Position numbers and translations under genes: made by a program. DNA of 32,000 bases, from assembly GCF_021054785.1 (NCBI RefSeq), contig NZ_CP088239.1, positions 510,001 to 542,000 on the forward strand, given 5' to 3'. Within the stretch, counting starts at the first letter, position 1, and the number at the start of each line of letters is the position of its first letter. The stretch comes from Tannockella kyphosi. GTDB lineage: Bacteria; Bacillota_I; Bacilli_A; Erysipelotrichales; Coprobacillaceae. Under the pieces are notes generated by a model, which was not told the origin of the DNA, searched no databases, and saw only the letters and a program-made list of their open reading frames with translations. Of this stretch, positions 5,923 to 22,570 are shown in pieces.

Positions 5923-5999
5923 GTCTACGTAGCTCAGCCGGATAGAGCACACGCCTTCTAAGCGTGCGGTCAGGGGTTCGAATCCCTTCGTGGACGCCA
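5923..5999 (+). tRNA. tRNA-Arg (anticodon TCT), CCA encoded
   Basis: Folded by hand. Acceptor GTCTACG/CGTGGAC with one G-U. D arm GCTC...GAGC. Anticodon stem CACGC/GCGTG with loop CTTCTAA. T arm AGGGG TTCGAAT CCCTT. Discriminator G, then CCA. Total 77 nt. Confidence 0.93.
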
Positions 6000-6009
6000 T
6001 TAGAAAAAT

Positions 6010-6036
6010 ACCCTTATTTTATAAGGGTTTTTATTT
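6010..6036 (+). terminator. tRNA-Arg terminator hairpin; also the start of direct-repeat copy A
   Basis: ACCCTTAT TTT ATAAGGGT followed by TTTTATTTT. Confidence 0.7.
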
Positions 6037-6047
6037 TGTCTTTTTTA

Positions 6048-6067
6048 TTTTGGACGCTTTTGGACGC
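6048..6067. repeat. Perfect tandem duplication 2 x TTTTGGACGC
   Basis: TTTTGGACGC occurs at 6048-6057 and 6058-6067. The TGGACGC core is identical to the tRNA-Arg acceptor 3' strand (5991-5997). The insert is absent from repeat copy B. Confidence 0.9.
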
Positions 6068-6084
6068 TTTTTTTTGTAAAAAAA

Positions 6085-7167
6085 TTAACCAAGAAGCTTT
6101 TTCATTTTATTCCTTTTTTCTGGAAACATGTGTGAATATGTCTTTTCGACCATTTCTTTTGAATGTCCTAAACGTTCGGATATATCCCATGCATCTGCAC
6201 CATTATTAGCTAAATATGAGACGTGGGAGTGTCTAAAGTCATGCAGACGTATTTTAGGTATAGAATCCTCATGCATGTTGTTATAAGCTACTATATAGCG
6301 ATTTTTCGCATTTTCAACCGTTTTATGTGGAATAGGTTTATTTGTGCCAAAGATGTAAAAGTTATTGTTGAATCCAGCAACAGTATCGCATTCCTTGTAT
6401 AATGCTTGTAAATCATCAAGTATTTTACTAGGAACATATATGATCCTATTTTCACCATTTTTTGTAGAGTTAGTAATAACTCTATTTTTATTATCAAAAT
6501 TGCTATGGATGCGTAGATCCCTAGTACGAAAATTCAAATCATTCCAAGTTCTAGCTTGGAGTTCACTAATTCGCATTCCAGTCCAATACATAGTTTGGAA
6601 GAGCAGCAGATGAAGATCATTCGTAATAACACTGCAGAATTTTTCAAAATCTTCTGGAGTGTAGAATAACATTTCTTTTTTTACTTCGTTGTGATTTTTC
6701 ACGTAGTCTACATAATCAAAAGGGTTTTTATCTATCATTAATTTCCTTACTGAGAAACGCAGAGTAGACTTCAATACAGTTTGTATTTTTTCACTATAGG
6801 CGTTTGAATAGCCTTGTTTTAATACTTCCTTTTGAAAAGCTTCAATAATTGGGATTGTTATCTTATCAACATACATCTTGCCCAAGAGAGGGGATATCTG
6901 TTTATTGTAAAGCATTTGATAATTATATATTGTACGAGGCTTTGTCCTATCTTTTTTGTACTCCAGGTACATTTTAAAAAGATCATCCAGTATGACCGAT
7001 TGTCTTTTAACTTGTTGTATTTCCAATAAGGCTATACGCTCATATTCTTGTGCGAGTTTTTTTGTTTGAAAACCTCTTTTTTTTGTAGTGACATATTTAC
7101 CAAAAGCATCAGAATATGATATACTGGCAAACCATGTGCCACGTTTTGTATCTTTGTAGGCTGGCAT
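6085..7167 (-). CDS. Tyrosine recombinase / phage-type integrase
   Basis: 360 aa. N-terminal SAM-like/arm region, then the catalytic domain with ...TGMRISEL..., LHDFRHSHVSYL, GHSKEMVEKTYSHMF (R..HxxR..Y signature). It is adjacent to and convergent on tRNA-Arg. RBS AGAGGG. Confidence 0.92.
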   Translation of the reverse strand: MPAYKDTKRGTWFASISYSDAFGKYVTTKKRGFQTKKLAQEYERIALLEIQQVKRQSVILDDLFKMYLEYKKDRTKPRTIYNYQMLYNKQISPLLGKMYVDKITIPIIEAFQKEVLKQGYSNAYSEKIQTVLKSTLRFSVRKLMIDKNPFDYVDYVKNHNEVKKEMLFYTPEDFEKFCSVITNDLHLLLFQTMYWTGMRISELQARTWNDLNFRTRDLRIHSNFDNKNRVITNSTKNGENRIIYVPSKILDDLQALYKECDTVAGFNNNFYIFGTNKPIPHKTVENAKNRYIVAYNNMHEDSIPKIRLHDFRHSHVSYLANNGADAWDISERLGHSKEMVEKTYSHMFPEKRNKMKKLLG

Positions 7168-7168
7168 A

Positions 7169-7702
7169 ATTTATACCCTCTTTCTTTTTGTTGTTTAGAA
7201 GTCCATTTACAGATGCTGTTCCCAAAATATTTTCTATATCTAAATTATTTTTCATAAATTGTTTAAGATATTCTAATTACTGATCACTTAAAGAAAGCAT
7301 ATCTAACATAAAAAATGGTTTTAGGTCCATAATGTTTGGTTGTTCTAAATCAGTGTAAAATTTGTAAATAACACCATTTGTTAAAATAGCGAATTTAGAT
7401 TTTGTAGTACCAAAATATCTAAATAATTGTGAATCATGTTTTTCCAAGTTGTCACTGTATGGTTTTGCTTCAATGAGTATGAAAGGTACATTATCTTGTA
7501 AGATTGCATAATCTACTTTTTCATGTTTTTTAATACCTACATCGCCAGTAAACTCAGGTATAAATTCTAACGGATTAAAAACATCATAACCCAAGTTCGA
7601 AAAGAACGGTAAAATAAAGGACTGCTTTGTCGCTTCTTCTGTTGCTATTCTTTCCTTAAGATTCTTAATACGGTCACTTAATGCATACATTTTTTCTTCC
7701 AT
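7169..7702 (-). pseudogene. HsdR_N-type PD-(D/E)xK nuclease-domain gene, interrupted by an in-frame TAA and 3'-truncated at the integrase gene
   Basis: ORF 7277..7702 (141 aa) has strong RBS AAGGAGGA and the motif VDYAILQDNVPFILIEAKP typical of type I restriction enzyme R N-terminal-domain proteins. After the TAA at 7277-7279 the same frame stays open for about 36 more codons (LEYLKQFMKNNLDIENILGTASVNGLLNNKKKEGIN) until it runs into the integrase start. Confidence 0.65.
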
Positions 7703-8180
7703 ACTTTTATCCTCCTTAAATAAAATGTATTTATATGAACACGGCTGTGTTTATAATGGTACTACTGTATCGTTTTGTTGAGTTTCAAAAGCTTGAAGCG
7801 GAGGCACATCTAATGAGCTGTAGCCCTAGGCAAATCATGCAGTTTCATAAAAAAGAATTATTTTTCTCTTAAAAAAGAGTAATAAAGTGAGATGGTTGCG
7901 TATATATAAGTGTAGGTATAACATCCCTACGTTTACGTGTGTGAATAAGACCGATTTTATTTAGGAAAAATAGTAATTTTATATCAAAAATCGCACTATT
8001 TTGCTAGTAAAATCCTAAAAAAAGATACTTTTTTGAACTTTTGTATTATTATAAAGGTATATTTGTTGTTGTTTTTATAGCTAAAAAGCAAAAAAAGTGA
8101 AGAAAAAGCTATAAAAAACTAAAGAAAACTAAAGAGAAAACTTAAAAAGTTAAAAAGAAAAACAGTTAGGAGGTAATATT

Positions 8181-8348
8181 ATGGCAACGAAAAGTTTTGA
8201 TAGTAAATTTCAAGTAAATAATAATTCTTTTGATTGTTTTCAAAAAGTACTTTCTAGCGATAAGATAACAATTTTAAATTGCACTAAAAAGGTTAGACCC
8301 TTGAATAAAGTGGAAGTTTTAGAGCGCATGAAAAATGCAAAAAAATAG
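8181..8348 (+). CDS. Small protein (55 aa), putative partner or antitoxin of the downstream GNAT-like gene
   Basis: It is absent from the ORF track because it is under 60 aa. ATG 8181 is preceded by TTAGGAGGT at ideal spacing. It ends at TAG 8346-8348 and overlaps the next ORF by 14 nt. No recognisable fold (not DUF1778/RHH-like by eye). Confidence 0.5.
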   Translation: MATKSFDSKFQVNNNSFDCFQKVLSSDKITILNCTKKVRPLNKVEVLERMKNAKK

Positions 8349-8982
8349 TGATATCGATTTTGTTAATACGAACATACCGGATTTGATTGAACTTTATGGA
8401 GAGAGTGTCGTAAATGATATTCTCTCCGATTTTTCTTGTCCTAAGAATAAAGACGTAGCTTATTTTTTGAAAAATAAAGCTTTAACAATGGAGAAGGCTG
8501 ATTATCGTGGGTCTAGAACATATTTGATAGGGTTCTTAAATGATGAGGGTGGATTCAACTTATGCGCATACTACACGTTAGCTAATAAGCCTTTTGAATT
8601 AAATCCCGACTTGAGCAATAGTAGGAAAAAAGAGCTAAGAGGCAAATACAGCACCACACCAAATGCTGTTTCGGCTGTGTTGATTGGCCAATTGAGTAAA
8701 AATTTCAACCATGGCTATGAGTATTTATTATCTGGAAGGGATCTGATCACTTTAGCCATAAACAGTATGAAACCCACATATGATTCTGTGGGGCTTGAAA
8801 TAGTTTTTTTAGAGTGTGAAGACACTCCAAAATTAAGAAGATTTTATGAGGATACTGGTTTTGAACTTTATGTCGATAAGGACGGTAAACCTATTAGATC
8901 GTTACATGGCGGTAATAACGAATCGGAGTTATTGATATATTTTGCAAAATATAAAACCTTAAAAGTGAATTTACCTTTATAA
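8335..8982 (+). CDS. GNAT-fold N-acetyltransferase-like protein, TacT/KacT-like pattern
   Basis: 215 aa. DFSCPKNKDVAYFLKNKALTMEK...SRTYLIGF...LCAYYTLANKPFEL...VSAVLIGQLSKN...LSGRDLITLA...KLRRFYEDTGFE follows the layout I recall for TacT-type toxins (F.cG..LD.FLk..A...aRTfV...GfYsLa...rLAvd...G.G..LL..A...FY...GF). It has no RBS of its own and is coupled to the upstream ORF. Confidence 0.55.
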   Translation: MQKNSDIDFVNTNIPDLIELYGESVVNDILSDFSCPKNKDVAYFLKNKALTMEKADYRGSRTYLIGFLNDEGGFNLCAYYTLANKPFELNPDLSNSRKKELRGKYSTTPNAVSAVLIGQLSKNFNHGYEYLLSGRDLITLAINSMKPTYDSVGLEIVFLECEDTPKLRRFYEDTGFELYVDKDGKPIRSLHGGNNESELLIYFAKYKTLKVNLPL

Positions 8983-9129
8983 AATTATGTAGACACCTTT
9001 GTAGGTGTCTTCGAGTGTCGATAAAGTCAGAAAAGGCTTGTCGGCACTTTTTTGCATTCACATCTTTTTGTGACTTCCTCTATATTCGATACTTTCCTCT
9101 CTTGTTTTGGCATAATTAAGGGGTTCATT

Positions 9130-9886
9130 ATGATGACGAAAAAGGATTCAAAGCAATAAGAAATGGTAGTAGTAATATTAGAAGACTTAGTTCCTCAAGA
9201 TCATATCCTTAGAAAGATTGATAAAGCAATTGATTTATCTTTTGTGTATGATCGTGTACAACACTTATATAGTGACATAGGAAGACCAAGTATTGATCCT
9301 GCTGTTTTAATTAAATTAGCTATTGTAGATAAGTTGTTTGGTTATCATAGTATGAGAAGAACTCTAAATGAAGCAGAAGTTAATTTAGCTATTCGTTGGT
9401 ACTTTCTTTACGGCATAGAAGAAAAGCTTCCTCATTTTTCTGGATTTTCAAAAACATATAGTTGCAAGTTCTCTCAATTAATTGATATTACAAATAAAAA
9501 AGGAGAAGTAGTTTGTCAAGATACTATCTTTGCGGTAATATTTGATGAAGTATTATCAGTGACGATGGATAAGAACTTCTTATATCTAGAACATATTTAT
9601 ATGAACTCTACTTATATCAAGGCAAACTCAAATAAAAAGAAATTATCAAGATGAATTGGATGTAGAGATTGATAGTCTTTGTTCCAAGAATGACTACAGA
9701 GCCCCAAAACCTTTAGAAATAAAGGGAAATAAAAATAATGAAGATAAAGCAACAAAAATGGGAAAGAAAGATTTTCAGTATGATGAATATAAAGAAAATA
9801 GCGTTTTGGAGCCAGTGGGCGTAGAGAAATCTATGTCATTTTTTATATATGAGAACAAATGCGATAAAAAAGACCATCAACTATAA
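9130..9886 (+). mobile_element. Decayed IS1182-family (DUF772 N-terminal) transposase gene: nonsense codon, frameshift and a large internal deletion
   Basis: MMTKKDSKQ, then TAA (9157-9159), then in frame EMVVVILEDLVPQDHILRKIDKAIDLSFV...GRPSIDPAVLIKLAIVDKLFGYHSMRRT...AIRWYF, which is the characteristic transposase N-terminal domain. The ORF breaks at 9654 and a second 76-aa piece lies in another frame. The total is far shorter than an intact DDE transposase, and no terminal inverted repeats were identified. Confidence 0.7.
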
Positions 9887-9926
9887 CCTCTCTCTAAAAA
9901 AGAGGGGGGTATTGTCAACTGTCTGA

Positions 9927-10030
9927 TACCCTTATTTTATAAGGGCTTTTATTTTGCTTTTTTTATTTTTGCATGAATTATTTTAAAAAAATTAATCAAG
10001 TAGTTTTTCCATCGTATTCCTTTTTTTAGA
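9927..10030. repeat. Direct repeat copy B, containing the 3'-terminal remnant of a second integrase gene (minus strand)
   Basis: Hairpin ACCCTTAT TTT ATAAGGGC. The reverse complement of 9992-10030 reads ...FSKKRNTMEKLLD*, compared with ...FPEKRNKMKKLLG* at the end of the intact integrase. Similarity stops near 10030. Confidence 0.8.
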
Positions 10031-10130
10031 GAATACGTTAGCTTGATTTTATAAATTACTAGAAAGTGATATAGTAATAATAAATAAGGGATTTATCCTC
10101 TTAGCAACATTTATGAATATGCTTGTTAAT

Positions 10131-10165
10131 AAAACCTGTTTCATCAAGAAATAGGTTTTATTGTA
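10131..10165. terminator. Strong, potentially bidirectional hairpin upstream of the AAA+ gene
   Basis: AAAACCTGTTTC (10131-10142) / GAAATAGGTTTT (10148-10159), a 12-bp stem with one G-U, flanked by an A-run and a T-run. Confidence 0.6.
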
Positions 10166-10259
10166 TTGGAAGGTTTGGTTCAAATTATGAAATCATCACA
10201 AAGTAAACTGCTTTTATGATATGATATTTATATTAATTGATGGTAAGAAAGAGGATATT

Positions 10260-11774
10260 ATGATAGATACTAGATATGCAACAAATGAAATAAAACTAAC
10301 TGATCAAATACGTATCTTACGTAAAAATGGAGAAAAAGTTAAGTTAGGTAGTTTAATATTGGGAACTACTTATACGTATCAAAAAGGGTATGGTAGAGCG
10401 TTAGAATGTATATGTATATTTGGTACTAGAGAAGTGGTAGTAAGAGATGATTTATATTGCATTCAAGATGGTGAAAATTTTACATATGCATATAAAGATC
10501 CTAAAGGAAATATATCTCTTTATGCAACAGATCCTTTTAGTAAAGATGTTTTTCAATTGTTGTTTTTATGTGCTAGTGAGTTAAGCTGTAATAAAACAAT
10601 AAATGATATTGTGTCTAAGTTATATATTCATTCTCTATCAATAGGGTGGAATGATGTTTGGGATGCTTTTCACCAAGAAGATGCTATTGAATTAGCAGCT
10701 CTATATGTAGAGTATATAGAAGAAATGATACAAGATGGACGCTTTTATTGGATAAAAAAACACGAATTGTTTAGTAAAGATTTTAAAACAGGAAAAACAA
10801 AACAAGCACCTGATACTTCAGGTATTCTATTTCAAGAAAGAGAAGATTTATCACATCTAGCTATTTCTTATACAAAAGAAGACTTGAATCAAATGCCAAC
10901 TTATTTAATTGATTCTATTCAAGATAATATTCAATTTTACCAAGCAAATAAAGATACACTTGATAAAAATGCAATCCAAGTTATTAAAGCTTTTGCTGGG
11001 GACTATGTATGGGCTGCAGGCTATTATGGACCTTCTGGAACAGGAAAAACAACGACAGCAAAATTAATTGCTGGAGCATTATGTTTACCAATTATCAAAG
11101 TAACGGGAAGTAGAAATATTGATGAAGCTTATTTGTTTGGAAAATATATTTTAAAAAATGGGGATACTGAATTTAGTTATGGACCTTTATCTTTAGCAAT
11201 GAAGCATGGTGCGCTCTTTTTGTTTGATGAAATTAATATGATAGAAGGTGATGTTTTATCTTCTTTAAATGATGTTTTAGAAATGAAAAACGGTAAAAAA
11301 ATACTAGAAAATGGAGAACAAATTACTGCCCATCGGGCATTCCGTTTTATTGAAACAATGAATATTGGATATGCAGGTACAAATGATATAAACTTATCTC
11401 ACAAATCACGTATTCAATTAAAAGTAAAAATATCGAAACTAAGCATGGAACAAAATATACAAATCGTCTTAAATAATTCATCAATCAATAGAACAACTGC
11501 TAAAAAAATGATTCCTTTTATTGAAAAAGTAAATGATATGATTAATGAAAGTGGAAATGAATTTGCACAAAGAATTGATATTCGTAACATTATTAACTGG
11601 GCTAATTTAAGTGTGGCATTAGATAATGACTATATTCATGCAGCTATTCCAACTATCGTTGCAGGCTTACTAGAAGAAGATATCACAATAGATAATAGTG
11701 AATTAGAAGACATCTTATTATCAGACTCATTAGCTAGTAATGTTATGTCACAAATTATCGATACAATGAAATAG
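10260..11774 (+). CDS. AAA+ ATPase (AAA_5 / MoxR-CobS-NorQ-like module) with an unassigned ~256-aa N-terminal domain
   Basis: The preferred start is ATG 10260 (RBS AAAGAGGA 6 nt upstream); the track start 10221 has no RBS. Walker A GPSGTGKTT (11028-11054). Walker B LFLFDE (11214-11231). AHRAFRFIETMNIGYAGTNDIN matches the CobS/MoxR-type sensor region. Confidence 0.8.
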   Translation: MIDTRYATNEIKLTDQIRILRKNGEKVKLGSLILGTTYTYQKGYGRALECICIFGTREVVVRDDLYCIQDGENFTYAYKDPKGNISLYATDPFSKDVFQLLFLCASELSCNKTINDIVSKLYIHSLSIGWNDVWDAFHQEDAIELAALYVEYIEEMIQDGRFYWIKKHELFSKDFKTGKTKQAPDTSGILFQEREDLSHLAISYTKEDLNQMPTYLIDSIQDNIQFYQANKDTLDKNAIQVIKAFAGDYVWAAGYYGPSGTGKTTTAKLIAGALCLPIIKVTGSRNIDEAYLFGKYILKNGDTEFSYGPLSLAMKHGALFLFDEINMIEGDVLSSLNDVLEMKNGKKILENGEQITAHRAFRFIETMNIGYAGTNDINLSHKSRIQLKVKISKLSMEQNIQIVLNNSSINRTTAKKMIPFIEKVNDMINESGNEFAQRIDIRNIINWANLSVALDNDYIHAAIPTIVAGLLEEDITIDNSELEDILLSDSLASNVMSQIIDTMK

Positions 11775-11785
11775 GAGGGGATATA

Positions 11786-13552
11786 ATGGGTTCACTTTTT
11801 CTTACAAAACAAGATCTTGAAAAATATCAAAGAATCATGAACAAATATGCTCCCTATCCTACAACATTAGAATTCCTAGATGATTATAAAACAACAAATT
11901 TCTCATTTGTAGATAACAATCAAGCAAAAGTTGTAATATCAACATTTGTATCTGAACCTTATTCTTTTCATGATAATGAAAACGGGAGAGAATTGTTTCA
12001 TGATGGGATTGTTTTTCATGAATTGGCACATCTTTGTTATACTGATTTTGCAGCTATCATAACTTATCACATGCAAGAAAAGTTATTGCTTGAAAAACTA
12101 CAAGAAAAACATGATGCTTACTGGCAAGATGAATCTATGAAACCATCTTATCAAAAAGCTTTTATAGAACATTATTATTTTTTAAAAGAATTACAAATAT
12201 TTAATAGTTTAGAAGATGGAGCAATAGAACATTCTTTTTACTTACAGTTTCCAATTTTTAGTAATCGTATTATTTATGCTAGAAAAAAGCTAGTAGAATA
12301 TGAAATACTTGAAAACATTTATACAAAACAAAAAGGATTACCCGTACTCCTAGAAGCAATTCATCATTACTGTACCTGTTTTTATAAACAAAAACAGGCT
12401 CCTAATGAATTAGAAGGGCATCCTAGTCATCAAGAAATAAAGTCTAAAATCATAGAAGCTAGATTATATACTAAAAACACAAAACAAAGAATCTCGTTAG
12501 CAAAAGAAATTGCACTTCTCATAAAAGAAGAAATTGAAACAGAAGCAACTATTTTCTTTGAAAAGAATTATAATCATCGTTATGGTGAAATGGAAAAATT
12601 AACAGGTAAAAATAATGAATCCTTACCCGGAAACCGACCAGAAGAAATGAAAAACAAAAAAGAAATAGATCCAACAAAAATCAAAGAAGTAGAAGAAATG
12701 CAAGAAACAAAACAACAAGAAGAATATATCGATTTAGAAGAGGAATATACCGATACTTCAAAGATGCAAAATATTGTTAGGGTAACAGTTAGTGAGGAAA
12801 GATTATCTAGAGAACTACCGATATTTACTCTAAACAGAAAAGAAGAACTGTTAGTAGAAGCAAAACAAAATGCCTACTTAGTCCAAAAAAGAATTGTTCA
12901 TAAAAAGAGAACCTATTTTAAAAAGAAACTGGATTATGGAAGCAGATTAGATACAAAACAACTATATCGAGGTAAAATAGATGGTAAGATCTATCAAATA
13001 TCTAAAAAATCAAAACAAACAAATGTAGTTGTATCGATTTTAATTGATTCATCCTTCTCTATGCAAGGAAAAAGACAAAAAGAAGCAATAGAAACAGCAT
13101 ATAAATTAGGTGTTATGTTTCAAGATTTACGGATTCCTTTTTGTATTAATGGTCATAGTGTAGGAGATGATGATATCACAGACTTTGTACAATATGTTGC
13201 TTATGATCAATGTCGCCAATCAGGAATATTAAATGAATTATTTTATTTAAACACAAAAGGATTCACACATGAGTATATTGCTTTAAAACATAGCTTAGAA
13301 AATTTATCAAAACACAAAAGAGGAACACAAAAAGGTTTGGTTATTGTAATTAGTGATGCTGAAACAGAAAGTAAGCTGGAAATACAGACACTTTGTCAAC
13401 GCTATAAACGTTTAGAAAATATTGATGTGTTGGCTATTGCAGTAGGGAAGCTGGGAGAAGTAGCACAAACTTATGAGAATTATTTATATTTACCAACAAC
13501 CAAACATTTCTTTTTGGAATTGGTTAAAGAATTTGAAAGATTATCTATTTAA
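11786..13552 (+). CDS. vWA-domain protein with an N-terminal HExxH region and an acidic/basic linker (CobT/NorD/CbbO-like architecture)
   Basis: 588 aa. RBS AGGAGGGG overlaps the stop of the AAA+ gene. HELAH at 12017-12031, with SLEDGAIEH about 60 aa later. Low-complexity K/E linker. C-terminal vWA with MIDAS DSSFS (13046-13060), and later KGFTHE and VISDAE. Confidence 0.75.
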   Translation: MGSLFLTKQDLEKYQRIMNKYAPYPTTLEFLDDYKTTNFSFVDNNQAKVVISTFVSEPYSFHDNENGRELFHDGIVFHELAHLCYTDFAAIITYHMQEKLLLEKLQEKHDAYWQDESMKPSYQKAFIEHYYFLKELQIFNSLEDGAIEHSFYLQFPIFSNRIIYARKKLVEYEILENIYTKQKGLPVLLEAIHHYCTCFYKQKQAPNELEGHPSHQEIKSKIIEARLYTKNTKQRISLAKEIALLIKEEIETEATIFFEKNYNHRYGEMEKLTGKNNESLPGNRPEEMKNKKEIDPTKIKEVEEMQETKQQEEYIDLEEEYTDTSKMQNIVRVTVSEERLSRELPIFTLNRKEELLVEAKQNAYLVQKRIVHKKRTYFKKKLDYGSRLDTKQLYRGKIDGKIYQISKKSKQTNVVVSILIDSSFSMQGKRQKEAIETAYKLGVMFQDLRIPFCINGHSVGDDDITDFVQYVAYDQCRQSGILNELFYLNTKGFTHEYIALKHSLENLSKHKRGTQKGLVIVISDAETESKLEIQTLCQRYKRLENIDVLAIAVGKLGEVAQTYENYLYLPTTKHFFLELVKEFERLSI

Positions 13553-13628
13553 CACATTAACTTAATATAAAATTGATAGAAATGTTACTTTTAAAAGAGT
13601 AAACTTATTTTGTTTGAAAAAGGAGATA

Positions 13629-14858
13629 ATGATGGAAAAAAATTTTAAACTTACTAAGTTGGAAAAAAGTTGGATTTTATATGATGTAGGGAACTCTGCT
13701 TTTACGTTATTGATTTCAACGATTTTCCCAATTTATTTTGATGTTTTGGCTTCAAGTGCGGGAATAACTTCAGAACAGTATTTAACATATTGGGGTTACG
13801 CTATTTCGTTCGTAACGATTATTGTGGCATGTAGTGGACCGATTTTAGGAGCTTTGTCAGATCGAGGTCCTTTTAAAAAAAGATTCTTGTTGTCGGCAGT
13901 TGTTATTGGTTGTATATCAACCATTGCTTTAGCAATCACTTCTTCATGGGTGGTGTTTTTACTTGTTTTTATGGTTGCAAAAGTAGCATATTCATTGAGT
14001 TTGATTTTTTATGATTCAATGTTGGTTGATGTTACGGATGAGTATAGGATGGATAAAGTATCTTCATTTGGATATGCTTTTGGTTATATTGGAAGTGTTC
14101 TACCTTTTGCAGTAAGTATTATTTTTGTTTTATTTTATGAATCTATGGGACTATCTTTCCAAATGGCTATTTTCATAGCTTTTTGTATTAATGCGTTATG
14201 GTGGTTTGTTATGACTTTGCCTATTGTTAAACAATATAAACAAAAATATGTTGTTCAAGAAAATCATGCGAGCTTTATTAAAGTGTGGCAAACATTGAAA
14301 GAAATAAGTGAAAATAAAAAAGTATTCTTTTTCTTGATTGCCTTCTTTTTCTATATTGATGGAGTATATACGATTATTGATATGGCGACAGCCTATGGAA
14401 CTGCATTAGGGTTAGATAGTACAGGATTATTATTAGCTTTATTAGTTACTCAATTAGTCGCTTTTCCTTTTGCTATATTATTTGGTCGTTTATCTCAAAA
14501 ATATGATAGTGAGAAACTTATTTCTATTTGTATATTAAGTTATACAGGAATTGGTTTTTATGCAATTTTCTTAAACTCACAATTTCAATTTTGGACACTT
14601 GCTATTTTAGTGGGAATGTTCCAAGGTGGAATTCAAGCTTTATCACGATCTCATTTTGGTAAAATTATTCCTGAAGAAAAGTCAGGTGAATATTTTGGTA
14701 TTTTAGATATATGTGGTAAAGGTGCTTCTTTTATTGGCACAATGTTAGTTAGTTTTGGTACCCAAATTTCTGGTAATATGTCCGTAGGTGTTAGTGTTAT
14801 AACACCATTGATTTTTATAGGATTCTTATTCTTTAGAAAATCTACCAAAGTAATATAA
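13629..14858 (+). CDS. MFS transporter (UMF1/Atg22-like family)
   Basis: About 12 predicted TM segments and MFS-like loops (GALSDRGPFKKRF, GRLSQKYDSEK). The start is ATG 13629 or 13632, after AGGAG at 13621-13625; the track TTG at 13614 is less likely. Confidence 0.8.
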   Translation: MMEKNFKLTKLEKSWILYDVGNSAFTLLISTIFPIYFDVLASSAGITSEQYLTYWGYAISFVTIIVACSGPILGALSDRGPFKKRFLLSAVVIGCISTIALAITSSWVVFLLVFMVAKVAYSLSLIFYDSMLVDVTDEYRMDKVSSFGYAFGYIGSVLPFAVSIIFVLFYESMGLSFQMAIFIAFCINALWWFVMTLPIVKQYKQKYVVQENHASFIKVWQTLKEISENKKVFFFLIAFFFYIDGVYTIIDMATAYGTALGLDSTGLLLALLVTQLVAFPFAILFGRLSQKYDSEKLISICILSYTGIGFYAIFLNSQFQFWTLAILVGMFQGGIQALSRSHFGKIIPEEKSGEYFGILDICGKGASFIGTMLVSFGTQISGNMSVGVSVITPLIFIGFLFFRKSTKVI

Positions 14859-15625
14859 TGCCAGCTAATTATTCGCATTATCAATTTGGGCAAGAAGTGT
14901 ATCACTTATTAGAAAACGAAACTATAAAATCGATAATAAATAATCATTATGATCTTTACTTAATCGGATTACATGGACCAGATATATTATTCTATCATCA
15001 ACCACTAAAGAAGAATAAAATAAAAACAAAAGGATATAAAATGCATGATCAAGAAGCTTTTGATTTCTTTACAAAGGTAGTCTTGAATACTGATGCAACA
15101 AGAGCATATATGTTTGGCTTTTTATGTCACTTTGTTTTGGATAGTACATGTCATGGTTATATTAACGAATGTGTTGAAAAAACTGGACGATCACATTATC
15201 AAGTAGAGGCTGCTTTTGAAAAGTATTTAATGATATTAAAACATGTTGAATATTTAAATTTAAATACAGCCAAACATATTGTGCCAAACAATGAGAATTA
15301 TCAAATAATTGCTAGTGTATTAGAAGTGGAAGAAATAGCTATTGAAAAAGCACTAAATTCAATGATTTATTATCATAAACTATTGGTTCCAGGTAGGTAT
15401 AAAGATAAAATCATTCGTTTTGCTCTCACTATTTCTAGACATGGAGAATTAAAGGGGTTAATGTTAGGCCAAAAAACAATGGCTGTAGATCAAAAGAATA
15501 ATATAGATATTTATGAGCTTTATAACCAAGCAAAGCCAATTGCTATTAGGTTGATACAAAATTATGATGATTTCTATCATGGTGTTGCATTATTGGATGA
15601 TTACTTTCATAAAAATTATGGATAA
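14858..15625 (+). CDS. Zinc-dependent phospholipase C-like family protein (function unknown)
   Basis: MPANYSHYQFGQEVY...LIGLHGPDILFYHQPLKKN...KMHDQ...FLCHFVLDSTCH resembles the clostridial proteins annotated with that family name, by recall only. The start overlaps the MFS stop as TAATG. Confidence 0.5.
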   Translation: MPANYSHYQFGQEVYHLLENETIKSIINNHYDLYLIGLHGPDILFYHQPLKKNKIKTKGYKMHDQEAFDFFTKVVLNTDATRAYMFGFLCHFVLDSTCHGYINECVEKTGRSHYQVEAAFEKYLMILKHVEYLNLNTAKHIVPNNENYQIIASVLEVEEIAIEKALNSMIYYHKLLVPGRYKDKIIRFALTISRHGELKGLMLGQKTMAVDQKNNIDIYELYNQAKPIAIRLIQNYDDFYHGVALLDDYFHKNYG

Positions 15626-15646
15626 AGGAGTGTAAACTCCTTTTTA
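15626..15646 (+). terminator. Rho-independent terminator
   Basis: AGGAGT GTAA ACTCCT followed by TTTTTATTT, directly after the stop codon. Confidence 0.65.
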
Positions 15647-15683
15647 TTTGTGTATAATAATAAAAAGAAATGGGGGAATACAA

Positions 15684-16874
15684 ATGAAGTATCGTTATTC
15701 AAATCGAATTGAAAAAGCAAAAGCATCTGCAATTCGAGAAATATTAAAAATGATGAATGATCCAGAAATGATAAGTTTTGGTGGTGGAAATCCAGCAGTT
15801 GAAACATTTCCGATTGAATCATTAAAAAATATCTCAAGTCGTCTTTTTGAAGAAAGTCCGACAAAAGTATTAGAATATGGTATTACGGAAGGTGATATTG
15901 ATTTAAGACAAGAGGCTTTACAATTCTTTTCTAATAAGGAAGATATTAAAAAAGAATATGATCAAGTTTTAATTACATCTGGTTCACAACAAATTATGGA
16001 TTTTATTGCCAAGGTATTGTGTAATGAGGATGATAAAGTAATCTGTGAGAATCCTAGTTTTTTAGGTGCTTTGAATGCTTTTAAAAGTAATGGAGCAACA
16101 CTGGTAGGATGTGATATTGAAGCAGATGGTATTAATTTGGAACAAGTAGAAAAAGCTTTACAAAGTGATGTAAAGCCAGCATTTATATATACGATTCCTA
16201 ATTTTCAAAATCCAACAGGGATTACTATGTCTTATGAAAAAAGAAAAAAATTATATGAACTAGCATGTAAATATGAAGTACCTATTTTAGAAGATAATCC
16301 TTATGGTGATTTAAGATTTGAAGGACAAGCAATCCCATCAATCAAATCAATGGATGAAGAAGGAATTGTTATTTATGCAGCTAGTTTATCTAAAATAATA
16401 GCTCCTGGTATGCGTGTAGCGATGTTGTTAGCGCATCAAGATATTGTTGGTAAAGTAACAGTTGCTAAACAATCCAATGACGTTCATTCAAATGCATGGT
16501 CACAAAAAGTAATGGCTAATTTTTTACATGAAACAGATATGGCAGAACATTTAAAAAAATTACAAGCAGTTTACAGTCGTAAATGTGCATTGATGTTATC
16601 AAAAATGGAAGAATGTTTTGATGAAGCAGTTTCATGGACAATCCCTGAAGGTGGGATGTTTATATGGGTAACTTTACCAGATACAATTTCAATGTTAGAA
16701 TTTGTACAAGAAGCAATCAAAAACAAAGTAGCGGTAGTTCCGGGTAATGCGTTTTATAGTGATGATTCTATTCCTTGTCAATCATTTAGAATGAATTTTT
16801 CAATGCCTAGTGATGAAAACATCATCAAGGGTGTAGAAATATTAGGGACTCTTAGCAAACAAATGAACAAATAA
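15684..16874 (+). CDS. PLP-dependent aminotransferase, class I/II (2-aminoadipate/aromatic aminotransferase-like)
   Basis: The start is ATG 15684 (RBS GGGGGA); the track start 15648 has no RBS. AKASAIREILK, GGGNP, IPNFQNPTG and the lysine motif SLSKIIAPGMR are present. Confidence 0.85.
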   Translation: MKYRYSNRIEKAKASAIREILKMMNDPEMISFGGGNPAVETFPIESLKNISSRLFEESPTKVLEYGITEGDIDLRQEALQFFSNKEDIKKEYDQVLITSGSQQIMDFIAKVLCNEDDKVICENPSFLGALNAFKSNGATLVGCDIEADGINLEQVEKALQSDVKPAFIYTIPNFQNPTGITMSYEKRKKLYELACKYEVPILEDNPYGDLRFEGQAIPSIKSMDEEGIVIYAASLSKIIAPGMRVAMLLAHQDIVGKVTVAKQSNDVHSNAWSQKVMANFLHETDMAEHLKKLQAVYSRKCALMLSKMEECFDEAVSWTIPEGGMFIWVTLPDTISMLEFVQEAIKNKVAVVPGNAFYSDDSIPCQSFRMNFSMPSDENIIKGVEILGTLSKQMNK

Positions 16875-16899
16875 AAAAGTACCCACATGGGGTACTTTT
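16875..16899. terminator. Bidirectional terminator between the aminotransferase (+) and csp (-) genes
   Basis: AAAAGTACCC ACAT GGGGTACTTTT, with an A-run and a T-run on either side. Confidence 0.75.
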
Positions 16900-16910
16900 C
16901 ATTTTAGAAA

Positions 16911-17114
16911 TTATTGAGCAGCAACGTTTTGTGCTTGTGGTCCACGATCAGATTCAACAACGTCGAATTCAACTGCTTGACCTTCTTCTAAAGTTTTGAA
17001 TCCTTCAGCTTTAATTGCAGAGAAGTGAACAAAGATATCTTTGTTATCTTCATCAGCAGTGATGAATCCGAATCCTTTTTCTTGGTTAAACCATTTTACT
17101 TTACCTGTAGCCAT
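16911..17114 (-). CDS. Cold-shock protein (CspA family)
   Basis: 67 aa. [18 protein letters not shown] (RNP1) and DIFVHFSAI (RNP2). Confidence 0.95.
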
Positions 17115-17697: not shown

Positions 17698-17778
17698 CAA
17701 TCTTGTAAAAAAGATTGTTTTTTTATTTGTATAGTTTTTTTGGTATGGTATAATTAATTGTCATGGAGGGAAAGAAAT

Positions 17779-20700
17779 ATGCTAATTTTAGATAAAGAAA
17801 TAGATAGAATTATTTCAAATAATAGAACGAGATTTATTGCTTCTAGAATCGCTCACAGTGAAGAAATTGCTGAAATATATGTTACTCATGATTTATCAAG
17901 AGATGTATATATTATTCGTTCTAAAGTAGTTGAGCGTGATCAACATATTTGTTATATCGAAATTGATGCTCAAAATAAAGTGATTTATTATGATTGTCAA
18001 TGCTATTTTTGTGACTCATTTAGTGCATGTGCTCATGTTGGAGCAACGTTATATTTACTGCAAGAATTATCACCAAATAGCTTTCCTTTTCATTATAAAA
18101 ATGATGTGATAGAACGTCAGGAAGCAAGAAGACAAGCCTGGTTAGAACATCAAAAAAAGATGGAGTTAGAAAGAAGGCGTGAACTTGCAATTTCAAGACA
18201 AAGTGAATCAAGAGAATTCATTCATTCTTTTTTTCCTAGTATTGAAATACCTAAAAATATAAATAATATGGAATTATTTATCTCTGGTGATTTCAATCGA
18301 CCTATCCCTGCCTTGAAGTTTCAAGTAGGAGATAAAAAGAAATATATTATAAAAGATTATCGTTCTTTTTTATTAAATATAGAAATGAAAAAAGAAGTGG
18401 CTTATGGTAAAAAATTAAGTTTTATACATGATTATGAATGTTTTGAACCTGAGTCACAAAAAATAATTGATTTTTTAAGAGAAATTAGTGTTTTTCCAGT
18501 TGATCAATATGCATATGAACGCGACAAACTAGTGTACTTTACAGAAGATACTGTCGATTTGATATTTGATTTTTTAGTTGATTTAGAGGATAGTTATTTT
18601 GATTTTGGTATATTAGAACAAACTTTAAAACCAACCATTCATTTTGATAAGGAAAGTGAATTCTATAATATATATAGTAGTATGGGTGAAGAAAATAGTG
18701 AAATGATTATTGGAAATAAATACTGCTATATAGTTGATAATTATACGATGAAAAGAATTATTTTTGGTCATCATGAAAAAACATTTAGGCTATTTAAGAA
18801 GTTATATTTTGAATCAATTTATTTATTAGAAGAAGATAAAGAATCTTTTAACCAGTTTGTATTATCAGATATCTTGGATTCAGTAATTGTTAGTGGTATG
18901 GAGATAACTCCATCGAATGACTTTGAATGGAATAGAGAGTTATATGGTGATATGGATGAGAATGGTGATATTTCTATGCTGTTAAAAACACACTTACCAG
19001 ATGGGACAATCATAGAAGGCTATGATGTTCCAATGGAAAAACGCTCTGCAACATTACAAACTGTTATGAATCATTTAGACAGCTATAGTGATTATAAACA
19101 AAAGGGAATTTATTATTTTGATTCTAATAAAGAAAAAGGATACGAATTTGTACATGCTCATTTACCAATGTTAGCACCTTATGTAGATATATATGTAAGT
19201 GATGCTATTGATTCATTGAAACAAGCAAAAAAAGTTTCTTTCCAAGTAGGTGTAACAATTAAGAATGATTTATTAGAAATTGATGTTGATTCAATAGATA
19301 TTCCAAAAGATGAATTAGAGGCAGTTCTAGATACTTATAAACGAAAAAGAAAATATCATAAATTAAAAAACGGACAAGTTATTACCATGGATTCAACAGG
19401 ATTTAATAATTTAGAAGAAATGTTCACAAAATATGATGTAAATATGAAAGATTTTCATGATGGAAAAACAAATATTCCTATGTACCGTGCATTTTCTTTA
19501 GAAGATGCAAATAATTCAAAATATTTGCAATATAATCGTAGTGAAACCTTTAAAGAAGTTATGAAAAACTTAACAGAAACCAAAAAAGAAGAACTAACTA
19601 TTAAAGATCAATATATAAATGTACTTAGAGAATATCAAACAGCAGGAGTGCAATGGTTATATACGTTACAAAATTATCATTTTAATGGTATTTTAGCAGA
19701 TGATATGGGATTAGGAAAAACATTACAGGCTATTGCATTATTAGATAGTCATCATACAGGGACCTCTTTGGTAATTGCACCAGCTTCATTGTTATTAAAT
19801 TGGCAGGATGAGGTTCAAAAATTTGCACCAGATTTACATATTGAAGTTATCCATGGATCCAAACAAGCTCGTAAACATATCATTTTGCAATCTATGAATT
19901 ATGATATCCTTATTACTTCTTATGATTATATTCGTCGAGATGTTGATTTATATCAAGATATTCAGTTTGAATATGTTATTTTAGATGAAGCCCAATATAT
20001 AAAAAATCCAAAAACAAAGAATGCTCAGTCTGTTAAAAAACTAACTTCAAAACATCGACTTGTTTTAACAGGTACACCAATTGAAAACTCTTTAGCAGAA
20101 TTGTGGTCTATTTTTGATTTCTTAATGAAAGGTTATCTATATTCTTATAGTCATTTTCAAAAGAACTTTGAAATACCAATAGTGAAAGAAAAAAATCTAA
20201 AAGTACAAGAAGAATTGAAAAAATTAATTACTCCTTTTGTATTACGTAGAACTAAAAAAGAAGTTTTAACAGAATTACCAGATAAAATAGAAAAAACAAT
20301 TACAATTGAATTCAATGATGCACAACATAAACTATATCTTGCTAATTTAATGCAGGTTAATGAAAATTTACAAACACAACTTAAGGTTGATAATGTAAAT
20401 AAAATACAGATTCTTTCGATGCTAACAAGATTACGACAAATATGTTGTGATCCAAGATTAGTTTATGAAAATATGGATTATACATCTAGCAAAATGGATG
20501 CTTGTTTAGAATTGATCGATACATTAAGGCAAAACAATAAGAAAATCTTATTATTTTCCTCTTTTACTTCATTATTGGACTTACTTCAAATAGAACTTGA
20601 TAAAAGAAATATCTCTTATTGTGTATTAACTGGTAGTGTTGATAAAGTAAAAAGAAGAGAATTGGTAAATAAATTCCAAGAAGATGATACAACTATTTTC

Positions 20701-20997
20701 CTTATTTCTTTAAAAGCAGGGGGAACAGGATTGAATCTTACGGCTGCGGAAGCTGTTATTCATTTTGATCCTTGGTGGAATGTTTCTGCCCAAAATCAAG
20801 CAACAGATCGTGCTCATCGAATTGGTCAAAATAATGTAGTAGAAGTGTTTAAGCTAATAATGGATGGTTCTATCGAACAAAAAATAGCAGCCCTCCAAGC
20901 TCAAAAGAAAGATTTAGCAGATGCATTTGTAGAAGGGAATGAAGGCTCTATTAGTGCAATGACTTCTCAAGATATTATTGATTTATTTCAACCCTAG
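17779..20997 (+). CDS. SNF2-family helicase/ATPase with an N-terminal SWIM zinc finger
   Basis: The start is ATG 17779 (RBS GGAGGGA). SWIM CQCYFCDSFSACAHV. Helicase motif I LADDMGLGKT, motif II ILDEAQYIKN, TGTPIEN, and C-terminal LKAGGTGLNLTAAEAVIHFDPWWN...QATDRAHRIGQ. Confidence 0.92.
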   Translation: MLILDKEIDRIISNNRTRFIASRIAHSEEIAEIYVTHDLSRDVYIIRSKVVERDQHICYIEIDAQNKVIYYDCQCYFCDSFSACAHVGATLYLLQELSPNSFPFHYKNDVIERQEARRQAWLEHQKKMELERRRELAISRQSESREFIHSFFPSIEIPKNINNMELFISGDFNRPIPALKFQVGDKKKYIIKDYRSFLLNIEMKKEVAYGKKLSFIHDYECFEPESQKIIDFLREISVFPVDQYAYERDKLVYFTEDTVDLIFDFLVDLEDSYFDFGILEQTLKPTIHFDKESEFYNIYSSMGEENSEMIIGNKYCYIVDNYTMKRIIFGHHEKTFRLFKKLYFESIYLLEEDKESFNQFVLSDILDSVIVSGMEITPSNDFEWNRELYGDMDENGDISMLLKTHLPDGTIIEGYDVPMEKRSATLQTVMNHLDSYSDYKQKGIYYFDSNKEKGYEFVHAHLPMLAPYVDIYVSDAIDSLKQAKKVSFQVGVTIKNDLLEIDVDSIDIPKDELEAVLDTYKRKRKYHKLKNGQVITMDSTGFNNLEEMFTKYDVNMKDFHDGKTNIPMYRAFSLEDANNSKYLQYNRSETFKEVMKNLTETKKEELTIKDQYINVLREYQTAGVQWLYTLQNYHFNGILADDMGLGKTLQAIALLDSHHTGTSLVIAPASLLLNWQDEVQKFAPDLHIEVIHGSKQARKHIILQSMNYDILITSYDYIRRDVDLYQDIQFEYVILDEAQYIKNPKTKNAQSVKKLTSKHRLVLTGTPIENSLAELWSIFDFLMKGYLYSYSHFQKNFEIPIVKEKNLKVQEELKKLITPFVLRRTKKEVLTELPDKIEKTITIEFNDAQHKLYLANLMQVNENLQTQLKVDNVNKIQILSMLTRLRQICCDPRLVYENMDYTSSKMDACLELIDTLRQNNKKILLFSSFTSLLDLLQIELDKRNISYCVLTGSVDKVKRRELVNKFQEDDTTIFLISLKAGGTGLNLTAAEAVIHFDPWWNVSAQNQATDRAHRIGQNNVVEVFKLIMDGSIEQKIAALQAQKKDLADAFVEGNEGSISAMTSQDIIDLFQP

Positions 20998-21094: not shown

Positions 21095-21171
21095 GGCGGT
21101 TGTGGTGAAGTGGTTAACACATCAGATTGTGGCTCTGACATTCGTGGGTTCGATTCCCATCAGTCGCCCCA
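21095..21171 (+). tRNA. tRNA-His (anticodon GTG) with the extra 5' G(-1), CCA encoded
   Basis: GGCGGTTGTGGTGAAGTGGTTAACACATCAGATTGTGGCTCTGACATTCGTGGGTTCGATTCCCATCAGTCGCCCCA. The anticodon loop is TTGTGGC. It is near-identical in layout to Bacillus tRNA-His as I recall it. Confidence 0.93.
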
Positions 21172-21184
21172 TTTTAAAATGACG

Positions 21185-21216
21185 AACAGTAGATGAATAA
21201 ATCTACTGTTTTTATT
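21185..21216 (+). terminator. tRNA-His terminator hairpin, abutting the recombinase gene stop
   Basis: AACAGTAGAT (21185-21194) / ATCTACTGTT (21201-21210), a 10-bp perfect stem, then TTTTATTTT. Confidence 0.75.
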
Positions 21217-22537
21217 TTGTTTTTATGCGAATTTCCGTGAGGTTGTTTGGTGGAATCGTTATAAATGCGATTACCTTGTCTATATAATCTTTTCGATTGT
21301 TTTTTGCAATCTGTCCTATTGTTAAAACCCGTCCTGCAGCTAGTAGGGCTTTTTTTTGTTGTAGGATCTTTTTTTGTTCATTGTAGAGTGGAGTAGTGAG
21401 AATAATGTATTGTTCGGGATTATATGCTCCTAGGACGTATTTTTTTTTTATCTTTGATAGTTTCATAGTATAGTTTTTATATTCTCTTTCTAAAGCAATT
21501 AAAGTATTATCAAAATTTGTGATTTCTAGTTCCCGACTATCGATTTGTATTATTATCTTATTTTCGCTAATAATTGATTTACAGGGCTTACACTGATAAT
21601 AGTGATATTTGTTGCCTAGATGGTTTGTTCCATGCGTACAGGTCATTATATTGCCACAAGAGCAATATATCTTCCCTGCAAATAAATAATTAGATTTCTT
21701 ACGTATTTTTTTGTTAAGTATTTTTTGTGCTGCATCATATTCTTCTTTTGTAATGATGGCTGGTACTATGGCTTTATATACTTCTTTTTTGTACGTTAAT
21801 TTTCCTGTGTAGCGTTCATTTGTCAGAATACGTCTTATAAATGTTGTCGTAAATTTCGACTTGTTATGAGTGATATTGAGCATTTTACTGATGTCTTCTA
21901 GCTTTGTGTGGTTGATAAATTGGTGATAGATTGATTGAATCACTTCCTTTTCTTTTGTAACGATTACTAGTGTATTATCTTGGCTTCTTCGATAACCATA
22001 CATCATTTTGCCACCATAAGGATACTTTCCAGATCTAGCAACTTGAACTAATCCATCATTTGTTCGTTCAATTATTTTTTCTCTCTCATATTGATTTACA
22101 GCCATTTTGATATTCGTACTAAACCTTCCTGATGCGGATAGTATCGATATATCGTCATGAATACATTAAATAGATATATTATTTTCCTGCAGTAAATTCA
22201 AAAACTGTATACCATCACTAATATTTCTTGATATTCTTGAAAAATCATATGCAACTAGGTAATCAATTTGTTGTTCATTGATTTGTTGCATGACCTGTGT
22301 TATTCCTGGTCTTGATAGAGATGATCCGCTATAACCATCATCTATAAAAAATTGAATTTCTTTAGATGATTTTATTAATTGATTGACTTTGCAGTAGCGA
22401 AGTATCTGATCTTTTTGCATTTCGATAGAAACACCTTCCTCTGCTTGTTTTACTGTACTCACTCGTACATAACCGATAATATTCATTGTTCCACTAACAT
22501 AGATTATTCTATGCCCTCTCTTTTTGTTTTCATGCAT
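21212..22537 (-). pseudogene. Large serine recombinase interrupted by a single in-frame TAA
   Basis: The N-terminal piece is MNIIGYVRVSTVKQ...IDDGYSGSS...DYLVAYDFSRISRN (resolvase catalytic domain, nucleophile Ser in RVST). The TAA is at 22166-22168. The same frame continues as CIHDDISILSASGRFSTNIKMAVNQYEREKIIERTNDG (E-helix) into the recombinase and zinc-ribbon region (CSCG...CTHG...YYQCKPC). The two track ORFs differ by 432 nt, a multiple of 3. Confidence 0.85.
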
Positions 22538-22544
22538 TATACAA

Positions 22545-22570
22545 TAAAAAAAAGACTGATTAACAGTCTT
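22545..22570 (-). terminator. Terminator copy 1 of the AAGACTG/CAGTCTT family (after Fic-1)
   Basis: On the minus strand AAGACTG TTAAT CAGTCTT is followed by TTTTTTTT. The stem spans 22552-22558 / 22564-22570 and overlaps the Fic stop codon. Confidence 0.75.

Follow-up and report, generated by a model that had tools for sequence, protein, structure and literature searches.

Beside a small integrase island in the chromosome of Tannockella kyphosi, two tightly spaced genes encode an AAA+ ATPase (gene 1) and a protein with an HExxH motif and a vWA domain (gene 2), and the question is what such a pair does there. The genes lie at 10260-13552 of the stretch that we analysed, 32,000 nt of contig NZ_CP088239.1 (positions 510,001 to 542,000 of the forward strand; referred to as the window), and a sequence-only reading had put them forward as a candidate for an undescribed conflict or defence module carried by an island remnant. 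We find instead that the pair is a divergent member of a known machine type and not a new defence system. It is probably a CobS/CobT-type remodelling machine (MoxR class) that runs on ATP and stands alone, inherited vertically in T. kyphosi (Coprobacillaceae) and other Erysipelotrichales, and on our analysis it would most likely act as a remodelling or metal-insertion chaperone with a client that no conserved neighbouring gene encodes.

The ATPase and its CobT-like partner

The coordinates given for both genes by the sequence-only reading, their tight coupling, the ribosome-binding site (RBS) lying over the first stop codon and every motif it quoted were found where it had placed them (Table 1). 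The open reading frame (ORF) 10221-11774 includes the ATG at 10260, which is the likely start of gene 1, because five orthologues are 504-508 aa long with the N-terminus MI(D/G)TRY and an AGAGGA RBS precedes the start; this RBS is also kept in the closest relative, found on a contig that we call L008. Gene 1 ends with TAG at 11772-11774 and the next ORF, gene 2, runs from the ATG at 11786 to 13552, with a gap of 11 bp between the two; its product shows 100% identity to a T. kyphosi protein at NCBI. A vWA gene follows directly after the gene 1 homologue in all of the distinct loci (11/11), at a spacing of -8 to +40 bp, and the pairing of AAA and vWA genes is not due to chance.

The clearest relationship was found for gene 2. 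A word-indexed search returned five orthologues only and a search with a broad vWA alignment gave six close orthologues and two weak matches only, while an exhaustive profile search of 1.84 billion representatives gave 353 relatives, mostly of 600-900 aa; the motif counts below refer to an alignment of 67 of these 353. The best solved match of the family profile was Brucella CobT (9uka_G, E 5.7e-39), spanning the linker, shaft and vWA domain, and the profile also matched NorD (E 1e-12). Foldseek aligned the AlphaFold (AF2) model (predicted local distance difference test, pLDDT, 86.8) best with the vWA domain and finger of NorD among the released PDB structures, over 280 columns, and in BFVD over the full length with CobT-like proteins of phages and haloarchaeal viruses (E down to 3.8e-19). 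The Pfam scores were below threshold for VWA (22.3 bits, slightly under 23.8) and CobT_C (15.2 versus 21), and PF06213 gave no direct match. Taken together, the CobT profile match, the AlphaFold model and the Foldseek match to the NorD vWA domain confirm a vWA fold with its MIDAS (metal-ion-dependent adhesion site; DSSFS at residues 421-425), of which D421, S423, S425 and D524 are invariant in 67/67 family members.

In the model of the N domain, helix 1 is followed by a three-stranded sheet and then by a helical bundle that bears HELAH (residues 78-82) and LEDGAIE (within LEDGAIEH, residues 142-149). CobT of phage SSU5 is a PF06213 and PF11775 protein (E 2.1e-37 and 2.5e-112), and the N-domain profile of the gene 2 family aligned with the N domain of this protein (hhalign 97.3%, E 2e-11) with both motifs in register, HELAH and LEDGAIE against HEVAH and NALEDVFIE. 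The N domain of gene 2 is hence homologous to the CobT N domain (PF06213) through phage CobT, and its predicted topology equals that of the CobT_N crystal structure. It should be noted that the link to CobT_N goes by way of the phage intermediate and the topology, because the sequence profile search of the PDB did not recover the CobT_N chain; it gave a marginal match only, of the HExxH helix to the minimal zincin MJ1213 (E 0.02). The K/E-rich linker that follows varies in length and sequence between orthologues. The shaft is modelled as a hairpin with a short helix, and the HMM alignment sets it against the CobT segment around the shaft Q373-R413. The model, the CobT profile and the N-domain alignment together show the three-part architecture of CobT.

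In gene 1 the Pfam family AAA_5 matched residues 257-384 (E 2.9e-20), and within this match the protein also carries AHRAFRFIETMN. With its Walker A and B motifs, sensors and arginine finger, and with hairpins predicted at residues 294-307 and 346-356, it belongs with the MoxR class (helix-2-insert clade), and judging from these motifs it is presumably an active ATPase. The roles of N368, R384 and R442 were assigned by their spacing relative to N186, R210 and R271 of CobS (preprint 10.64898/2026.07.21.739949) and not by superposition. Among the PHROGs the protein matched (E 6.1e-33) phrog_249, which is the CobS family of phages and bears the label 'porphyrin biosynthesis', and the top NCBIfam match was also CobS (TIGR01650 equivalog), at 54.6 bits far below the cut-off for membership of 558.55. 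The family profile retrieved midasin AAA modules, CbbQ, NorQ and CobS from the PDB, and the AF2 model (pLDDT 81.2) was matched by Foldseek to NorQ/CbbQ (E about 4e-11). A tblastn search gave 397 phage records, every one below 60% identity, and the alignment with SSU5 CobS (hhalign 97.9%) covered residues 236-448 only.

The profiles, the folds and the N-domain homology accordingly bear out the earlier assignment to CobS/CobT- and NorQ/NorD-like pairs with a three-part vWA partner. What sets gene 1 apart is its N-terminal region of about 210-240 aa, for which no match was found in Pfam, NCBIfam, PADLOC or PHROGs, in agreement with the earlier statement that it fits no known family, nor by profile comparison with phage CobS. 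The Foldseek matches listed for the gene 1 model concern mostly its AAA module and not this region. It is kept across the clade, the phage-like member P0007 included, and we regard this clade-specific region as the most promising candidate for a second surface at which a client or regulator would bind.

For the assembly we draw on the solved relatives. The CobT shaft enters the CobS ring, and CobT_N docks on the small subdomain of CobS and on CobN; CobT is built of an M48C-like N domain, about 90 residues of disordered linker, the shaft and a vWA domain with MIDAS (10.64898/2026.07.21.739949). Likewise the NorD finger sits in the NorQ pore, where linker remodelling serves metal insertion (PMC13036017). 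By analogy we infer that gene 1 would form a hexameric AAA+ ring, that the zincin-like N domain of gene 2 would dock on the small subdomains of this ring, and that the basic shaft ahead of the vWA domain would enter the ring pore. The MIDAS face could then hold a client protein, which would be opened or re-shaped as ATP hydrolysis twists or pulls the adaptor. Most plausibly this would serve to insert a metal or cofactor or to assemble a complex.

The same matches raise the question of whether the pair could be a true CobS/CobT cobaltochelatase, or else a cobST of viral style that would recruit a CobN/ChlH-type subunit from a gene elsewhere in the genome to boost B12 synthesis. CobT is the best solved match of gene 2, CobS the top NCBIfam match of gene 1, and cobaltochelatase is the standard annotation of the phage homologues, for which a B12 hypothesis exists (PMC8651126). 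However, the CobS equivalog, CobT_C and PF06213 results fall short as given above, the ATPase has an extra N-terminal region of ~200 aa that is absent from CobS, and neither the window nor the related loci, about 10 in number, showed a CobN or cob gene. Anaerobic Bacillota moreover employ the ATP-independent CbiK/CbiX route. We consider this explanation extremely unlikely, and because the curated CobS/CobT thresholds failed and a CobN context is lacking, the pair should not be called a cobaltochelatase.

Table 1. Features of the gene pair and its immediate surroundings in the window (nucleotide positions of the window; residues of the respective protein)
Feature	Position	Strand	Remarks
tRNA-Arg island	6008..10030	.	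inserted, not part of the pair; direct repeats 6008-6038 / 9926-9956, then integrase remnant 9978-10030
Upstream region	10179..10259	+	probable promoter/leader of the pair; blastn alignment with L008 748-6240 starts at 10179
Gene 1	10260..11774	+	504-aa ATPase; clade-specific N-terminal region and CobS/NorQ/CbbQ-like AAA_5 module with lid
Gene 1 N-terminal region	10260..10964	+	~residues 1-235; four-stranded beta-meander and helical bundle; pLDDT about 85-90
Walker A GPSGTGKTT	11028..11054	+	residues 257-265; invariant in 44/44 homologues
Walker B LFLFDE	11214..11231	+	residues 319-324; D323 and E324 invariant (44 homologues)
Putative sensor-1 N368, arginine finger R384 (SHKSRIQ), sensor-2 R442 (RIDIR)	11361..11585	+	all invariant (44 homologues)
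Gene 2 RBS AGGAGGGG	11773..11780	+	overlaps the gene 1 stop; read directly from the sequence
Gene 2	11786..13552	+	588-aa CobT-like adaptor; zincin-like N domain, disordered linker, shaft, vWA/MIDAS
CobT_N-like (zincin/M48C-like) domain	11786..12571	+	residues 1-262; HELAH 12017-12031, LEDGAIE 12209-12229
Disordered K/E-rich linker	12605..12766	+	~residues 274-327; pLDDT <50 over 274-296 and 311-327
Long helix and basic shaft/finger KRTYFKKKLDYGSRLDTKQLYRGKIDGKIYQ	12821..13021	+	~residues 346-412; most conserved stretch outside the MIDAS
vWA domain	13025..13549	+	residues 414-588; MIDAS D421, S423, S425 (13046-13060), T494, D524
MFS (ATG22-like) and zinc-dependent phospholipase C (Zn-PLC)-like genes	13614..15625	+	Pfam; directly 3' of the pair, also in L008

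Chromosomal setting of the pair

The island stands next to a tRNA-Arg gene (5923-5999) and is roughly 4 kb long (6008 to about 10030); its 31-nt repeat occurs in two copies in the window versus 0 expected. It encodes an integrase, fragments of HSDR_N and DUF772, and two unassigned ORFs. At 8181-8982 of the island two ORFs of 55 aa and 215 aa overlap by 14 bp in a toxin-antitoxin-like arrangement, and neither matches Pfam or PADLOC. The 3' remnant of a second integrase to the left of the pair, pointed out from the sequence alone, is real (9978-10026 matches 6071-6119 at 84%), and so is the strong hairpin upstream of gene 1.

Contig L008, which encodes proteins of 71% (gene 1) and 63% (gene 2) identity, has the pair at the same site. 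It starts inside the same tRNA-Arg (bases 1-66 correspond to 5972-6036 of the window, 92%), and from base 748 it is colinear with 10179-15662 of the window at 73% identity, over the AAA, vWA, MFS and Zn-PLC-like genes. The order in L008 is tRNA-Arg, an RNase_T-like exonuclease gene on the minus strand, AAA, vWA, MFS and Zn-PLC-like, with no integrase and no island. Because L008 has both flanks without the island, we take the island as an insertion beside a pre-existing chromosomal pair. On this comparison the pair forms the ancestral chromosomal flank of the integration site, with the island and its decayed predecessor inserted alongside, and the proposal that it is surviving cargo of an older tRNA-Arg island does not hold. 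The case calls for caution with 'guilt by association' based on islands, as a flank of an integration site may be mistaken for its cargo.

The hairpin (10127-10163, 16-bp stem, -17.5 kcal/mol, z -4.6) is found in the gap that separates gene 1 from the integrase remnant and has no clear U-tract after it on the plus strand. As a part of the operon it was rejected, being to the left of the region conserved with L008; since it falls outside that region, it probably stems from the decayed inserted element or a lost gene. A weak -35/-10 match is present at 10237-10264. On the other side of the pair, no terminator-like hairpin was found in 13545-13620, between gene 2 and the MFS gene (z +0.26), and the MFS and Zn-PLC-like genes may be co-transcribed with the pair. 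A conserved functional link to these two genes was nevertheless rejected, as they accompany the pair in only 2 of about 10 contexts, the window and L008.

The chromosomal orthologues all come from Erysipelotrichales gut bacteria, have housekeeping surroundings and form two synteny groups. Near the pair are ribosomal proteins, ThiF and threonine synthase in L009, znuABC, enolase and a DtxR-like repressor in L010 and L011, ABC transporters and LRR proteins in L001, and sugar hydrolases and MatE in L063. A more distant clade (L002, L004, L012, L064 and L065) has a common PBP / ThiF / ATP_bind_3 synteny; it includes Massilimicrobiota, and a Faecalibacillus homologue is also known. L002 and L003 have each had a local insertion, of an IS3 copy and a Tn916-type integrase respectively. 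In L003, at 15693-16946, genes for the Tn916-type integrase, a sigma factor and an ABC-2 transporter replace ThiF/ATP_bind_3 past the PBP gene of the otherwise identical L002, and this element looks like a recent insertion near the pair that does not include it. A scan of genome contigs with the ATPase alignment was swamped by the Walker A pattern and gave one true relative (Massilimicrobiota).

In L010 (5574-12234) and L011 the pair comes right after a metal-uptake operon of znuA, an ABC ATPase and ABC-3, on the same strand, with a repressor of the DtxR/MntR type 3' of the pair on the opposite strand. Together with the Zn-PLC-like gene of the window, the znuA-operon neighbour gives a weak hint of a connection to zinc or manganese. 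No cob, nor, cbb or chelatase-substrate genes were found in the 32-kb window, as already stated in the earlier reading, nor in the ten related loci.

These surroundings bear directly on the defence proposal, according to which the ATPase N-terminal region would sense infection and the ring would activate an HExxH-vWA effector of the protease type. The pair does adjoin an integrase island, SoFic and PDC-S04 Fic genes are found in the window at 22570-25924, the window protein keeps HELAH and E148, distant relatives occur in phage-like contigs, and conflict systems with MoxR-vWA cores have been proposed (PMC7159879). Yet the island was inserted beside the pair and not around it, the Fic genes are part of another island, at tRNA-His and over 9 kb from the pair, and the orthologues reside in partly syntenic contexts among ribosomal, enolase, ThiF, PBP, threonine-synthase and ABC-transporter genes, with no known defence genes in their neighbourhoods. 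Further, no locus has a third (VMAP-type) or effector gene, and HExxH is lost in most chromosomal orthologues. PADLOC-DB 2.0 gave matches at the level of the P-loop for gene 1 (IetA, E 3.2e-5, residues 214-281 only) and none for gene 2; membership of IetA/IetS was therefore rejected, the P-loop alone being matched, and the earlier remark that the pair is not any named anti-phage system stands. The defence inference itself does not, and we now find it highly unlikely.

Distant homologous pairs were found in two phage-like contigs, L005 and L062, whose phage nature is inferred from gene content. A scan of IMG/VR gave no close relative, and neither did tblastn of gene 2, P0113 and the L062 partner against phage isolates and plasmids; P0120 alone reached phage CobT, by its vWA domain only. 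In the lineage of L005-L007 a 328-aa gene with a weak HNH-endonuclease match lies 15 bp 5' of the ATPase gene on the same strand (L005 8999-9985), and represents either a third gene peculiar to this lineage or an inserted homing endonuclease. At 11386-13768 of L062, C-C_Bond_Lyase and PRTase_2/TRSP proteins adjoin a module for replication that includes homing endonucleases of the HNH and GIY-YIG types. C-C_Bond_Lyase and PRTase_2/TRSP are families with links to stress or conflict systems of the Ter type.

The neighbours in such contigs could suggest that the pair is a domesticated phage accessory of replication, and the chromosomal copy could then have a replication or repair protein as its target. 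In L062 the pair has DnaN, a clamp-loader-like ATPase, RNase H and homing endonucleases nearby, in L005 DnaN and dUTPase; the ICP2 pair is beside primase and helicase, and the SSU5 pair beside ligase and Pol III alpha. No replication genes, however, adjoin the pair in the chromosomal loci, the viral origin of L005 and L062 is judged from their genes, and no known experiment ties viral cobST to replication. A replication role seems very improbable to us.

The HExxH site

The signature HExxH(x3)[ST]DF ... NxxEDxxIE was present in 63 of the 67 wider-family members of gene 2. Gene 2 itself keeps H78, E79, H82 and E143/E148, and its predicted topology is that of a zincin (gluzincin-like). Among the chromosomal Erysipelotrichales proteins an intact HELAH was found in the window protein and L008 only. 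The next orthologues (37-52% identity) have FELAK or RYIGK, and the sister chromosomal clade has HELAS, HEIAS or HQIAS; the members on the phage-like contigs read HEIGH (L005) and HETGH (L062). The orthologues with a degenerate HExxH retain the MIDAS, the shaft and the ATPase motifs. HExxH is thus ancestral in the wider family, and it is lost or degenerate in most chromosomal orthologues.

The sequence-only reading had considered a protease-type effector possible and had named lack of HExxH conservation across the family as a finding that would speak against its proposal. The motif is conserved in the wider family but not in most chromosomal orthologues, where FELAK, RYIGK, HQIAS and HE(L/I)AS stand in its place. 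Because the motif is degenerate there while the MIDAS, shaft and ATPase motifs are intact, we conclude that peptidase activity is not the conserved function. The pattern fits an N domain that would serve for docking, as an adaptor in the manner of CobT_N, and not for catalysis.

An alternative that keeps the machine and adds an activity is an ATP-regulated zinc metalloprotease, in which the N domain of gene 2 would additionally cleave the client captured by the MIDAS, as proposed for the jumbo-phage pairs. The gluzincin-like ligand set in most of the wider family, the motif intact in the window protein and its closest relative, and the weak match of the HExxH helix to MJ1213 all point this way, and a role of MoxR/metallopeptidase-vWA in virion maturation has been proposed (PMC7824862). 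Against it, the FELAK/RYIGK orthologues and the HE(L/I)AS/HQIAS sister clade preserve the rest of the protein, and for the homologous CobT_N the preprint describes docking on CobS and CobN and reports no catalysis (10.64898/2026.07.21.739949). We regard the metalloprotease as unlikely, and prefer the chaperone-like machine.

Known relatives and the rest of the window

Several described systems can be compared with the pair. The Brucella melitensis CobSTN complex (PDB 9UKA, 9UJV, 21VT, 21VU) has the same two elements, an AAA_5 ring ATPase and an adaptor of zincin/M48C-like N domain, charged disordered linker, shaft and vWA-MIDAS; the C-terminal two-thirds of gene 2 give the CobT match described above, and the N domains are homologous. 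The pair differs from CobS/CobT in having no CobN or cob genes nearby, sub-cut-off scores, the extra N-terminal region of its ATPase, an HExxH...E site and a host that is an anaerobic gut Bacillota. NorQ/NorD (PDB 9QH6, 9QHD; PMC13036017) and CbbQ/CbbO are the best fold matches for both proteins among the released PDB structures, and their principle of a finger in the ring pore, with linker remodelling to insert a metal or reactivate an enzyme, is the one we propose here. However, no nor or cbb genes are near the pair, the NorD profile match covers the vWA region only, and NorQ and CbbQ, of about 270 residues, have no counterpart of the gene 1 N-terminal region.

The closest parallel in gene organisation is viral. 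Orphan two-gene pairs as here are known as viral cobST (SSU5 gp049/050, ICP2 gp41/42, PHROG 249) and as the MoxR/metallopeptidase-vWA pairs of jumbo phages; gene 1 belongs with the phage CobS family by its ATPase, an HExxH-vWA partner is adjacent, and SSU5 CobT and gene 2 share the signature HExxH(x3)TD... NxLEDxxIE. The viral cobST cluster has been described as widespread, cyanophage cobT is often annotated as a peptidase, and boosting of B12 has been proposed (PMC8651126), while in jumbo phages the MoxR ATPase and its metallopeptidase-vWA partner were described computationally, with a proposed role in virion assembly or maturation (PMC7824862). Hence the architecture is not undescribed, although the sequence-only reading had offered it as a candidate for an undescribed module. 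The present pair is set apart by its chromosomal location, the order with the ATPase first (ICP2 and SSU5 have the adaptor first), the new N-terminal region of the motor and the decaying zincin site. In further contrast to viral cobST, identity is about 26-30% and confined to the AAA and vWA cores, the ATPase N-terminal regions differ, and the chromosomal pair is partly syntenic, in a context it has in common with its relative, with HExxH decaying in the clade.

The vWA-MoxR-VMAP ternary conflict systems are alike in combining a MoxR-class ATPase with a vWA protein, to which a peptidase is sometimes fused, but what defines them is a third component, VMAP, together with effector domains (Kaur, Burroughs, Iyer and Aravind 2020; PMC7159879). 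Comparison of neighbours, made without a VMAP profile, revealed no third conserved gene or effector common to the 11 loci, and the pair has no mobile or defence neighbourhood. As it lacks a third component or effector, the pair is not a ternary system of the VMAP type.

Further, we speculate that the pair might be a domesticated viral cobST with a new N-terminal domain on its motor and a host client unrelated to cobalamin. It could then load or strip the metal of an enzyme, for example, or, in the orthologues that keep HExxH, carry out ATP-gated cleavage, possibly in response to infection. We rate this as quite unlikely; if true, it would give the first experimental handle on the widespread phage 'cobST' genes. 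Orphan cobS/cobT-like pairs are common in phages (T4-like cyanophages, SSU5-like phage-plasmids) and routinely annotated 'porphyrin/cobalamin biosynthesis', and we found no experimental tests of phage cobST function, only the proposals of B12 boosting (PMC8651126) and virion maturation (PMC7824862). The chromosomal clade in cultivable gut Erysipelotrichales, apparently inherited vertically, would offer a tractable route to the client, with two genes, natural variants with and without HExxH, and an extra motor domain.

Some points weigh against a vertically inherited remodelling machine, which we nevertheless favour. No client, metal-related partner or phenotype is known for the pair, and the assembly model is transferred from proteins of only 12-20% identity. 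The hints of a metal are thin, with a Zn-PLC-like gene 3' of the pair in two loci, and znuABC 5' and a DtxR-like gene 3' in one. That the pair belongs to the core genes rests on about 10 contigs and not on a genome census. Finally, the window protein has an intact HExxH...E site, from which a proteolytic step seems possible in this orthologue.

In the rest of the window PADLOC gave SoFic, PDC-S04 Fic and generic SNF2 matches only. The last of these concern a 1079-aa SNF2 helicase with a bacterial SNF2_assoc domain at 17758-20997, just 5' of tRNA-His, which has strong generic matches to DpdE, ZorD and DrmD by its helicase core only, with none of their partner genes seen nearby. The tRNA-His island itself (21096-25924, with tRNA-His at 21096-21171) has a split serine recombinase, with a Resolvase part at 22166-22537 and a Recombinase/Zn-ribbon part at 21212-22105. 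It further carries a SoFic-type Fic gene at 22570-23664 (PADLOC E 3e-97), a toxin of the YafQ/ParE type at 24378-24656 and a second Fic gene at 25160-25924, which matches the candidate system PDC-S04 (E 1.3e-95).

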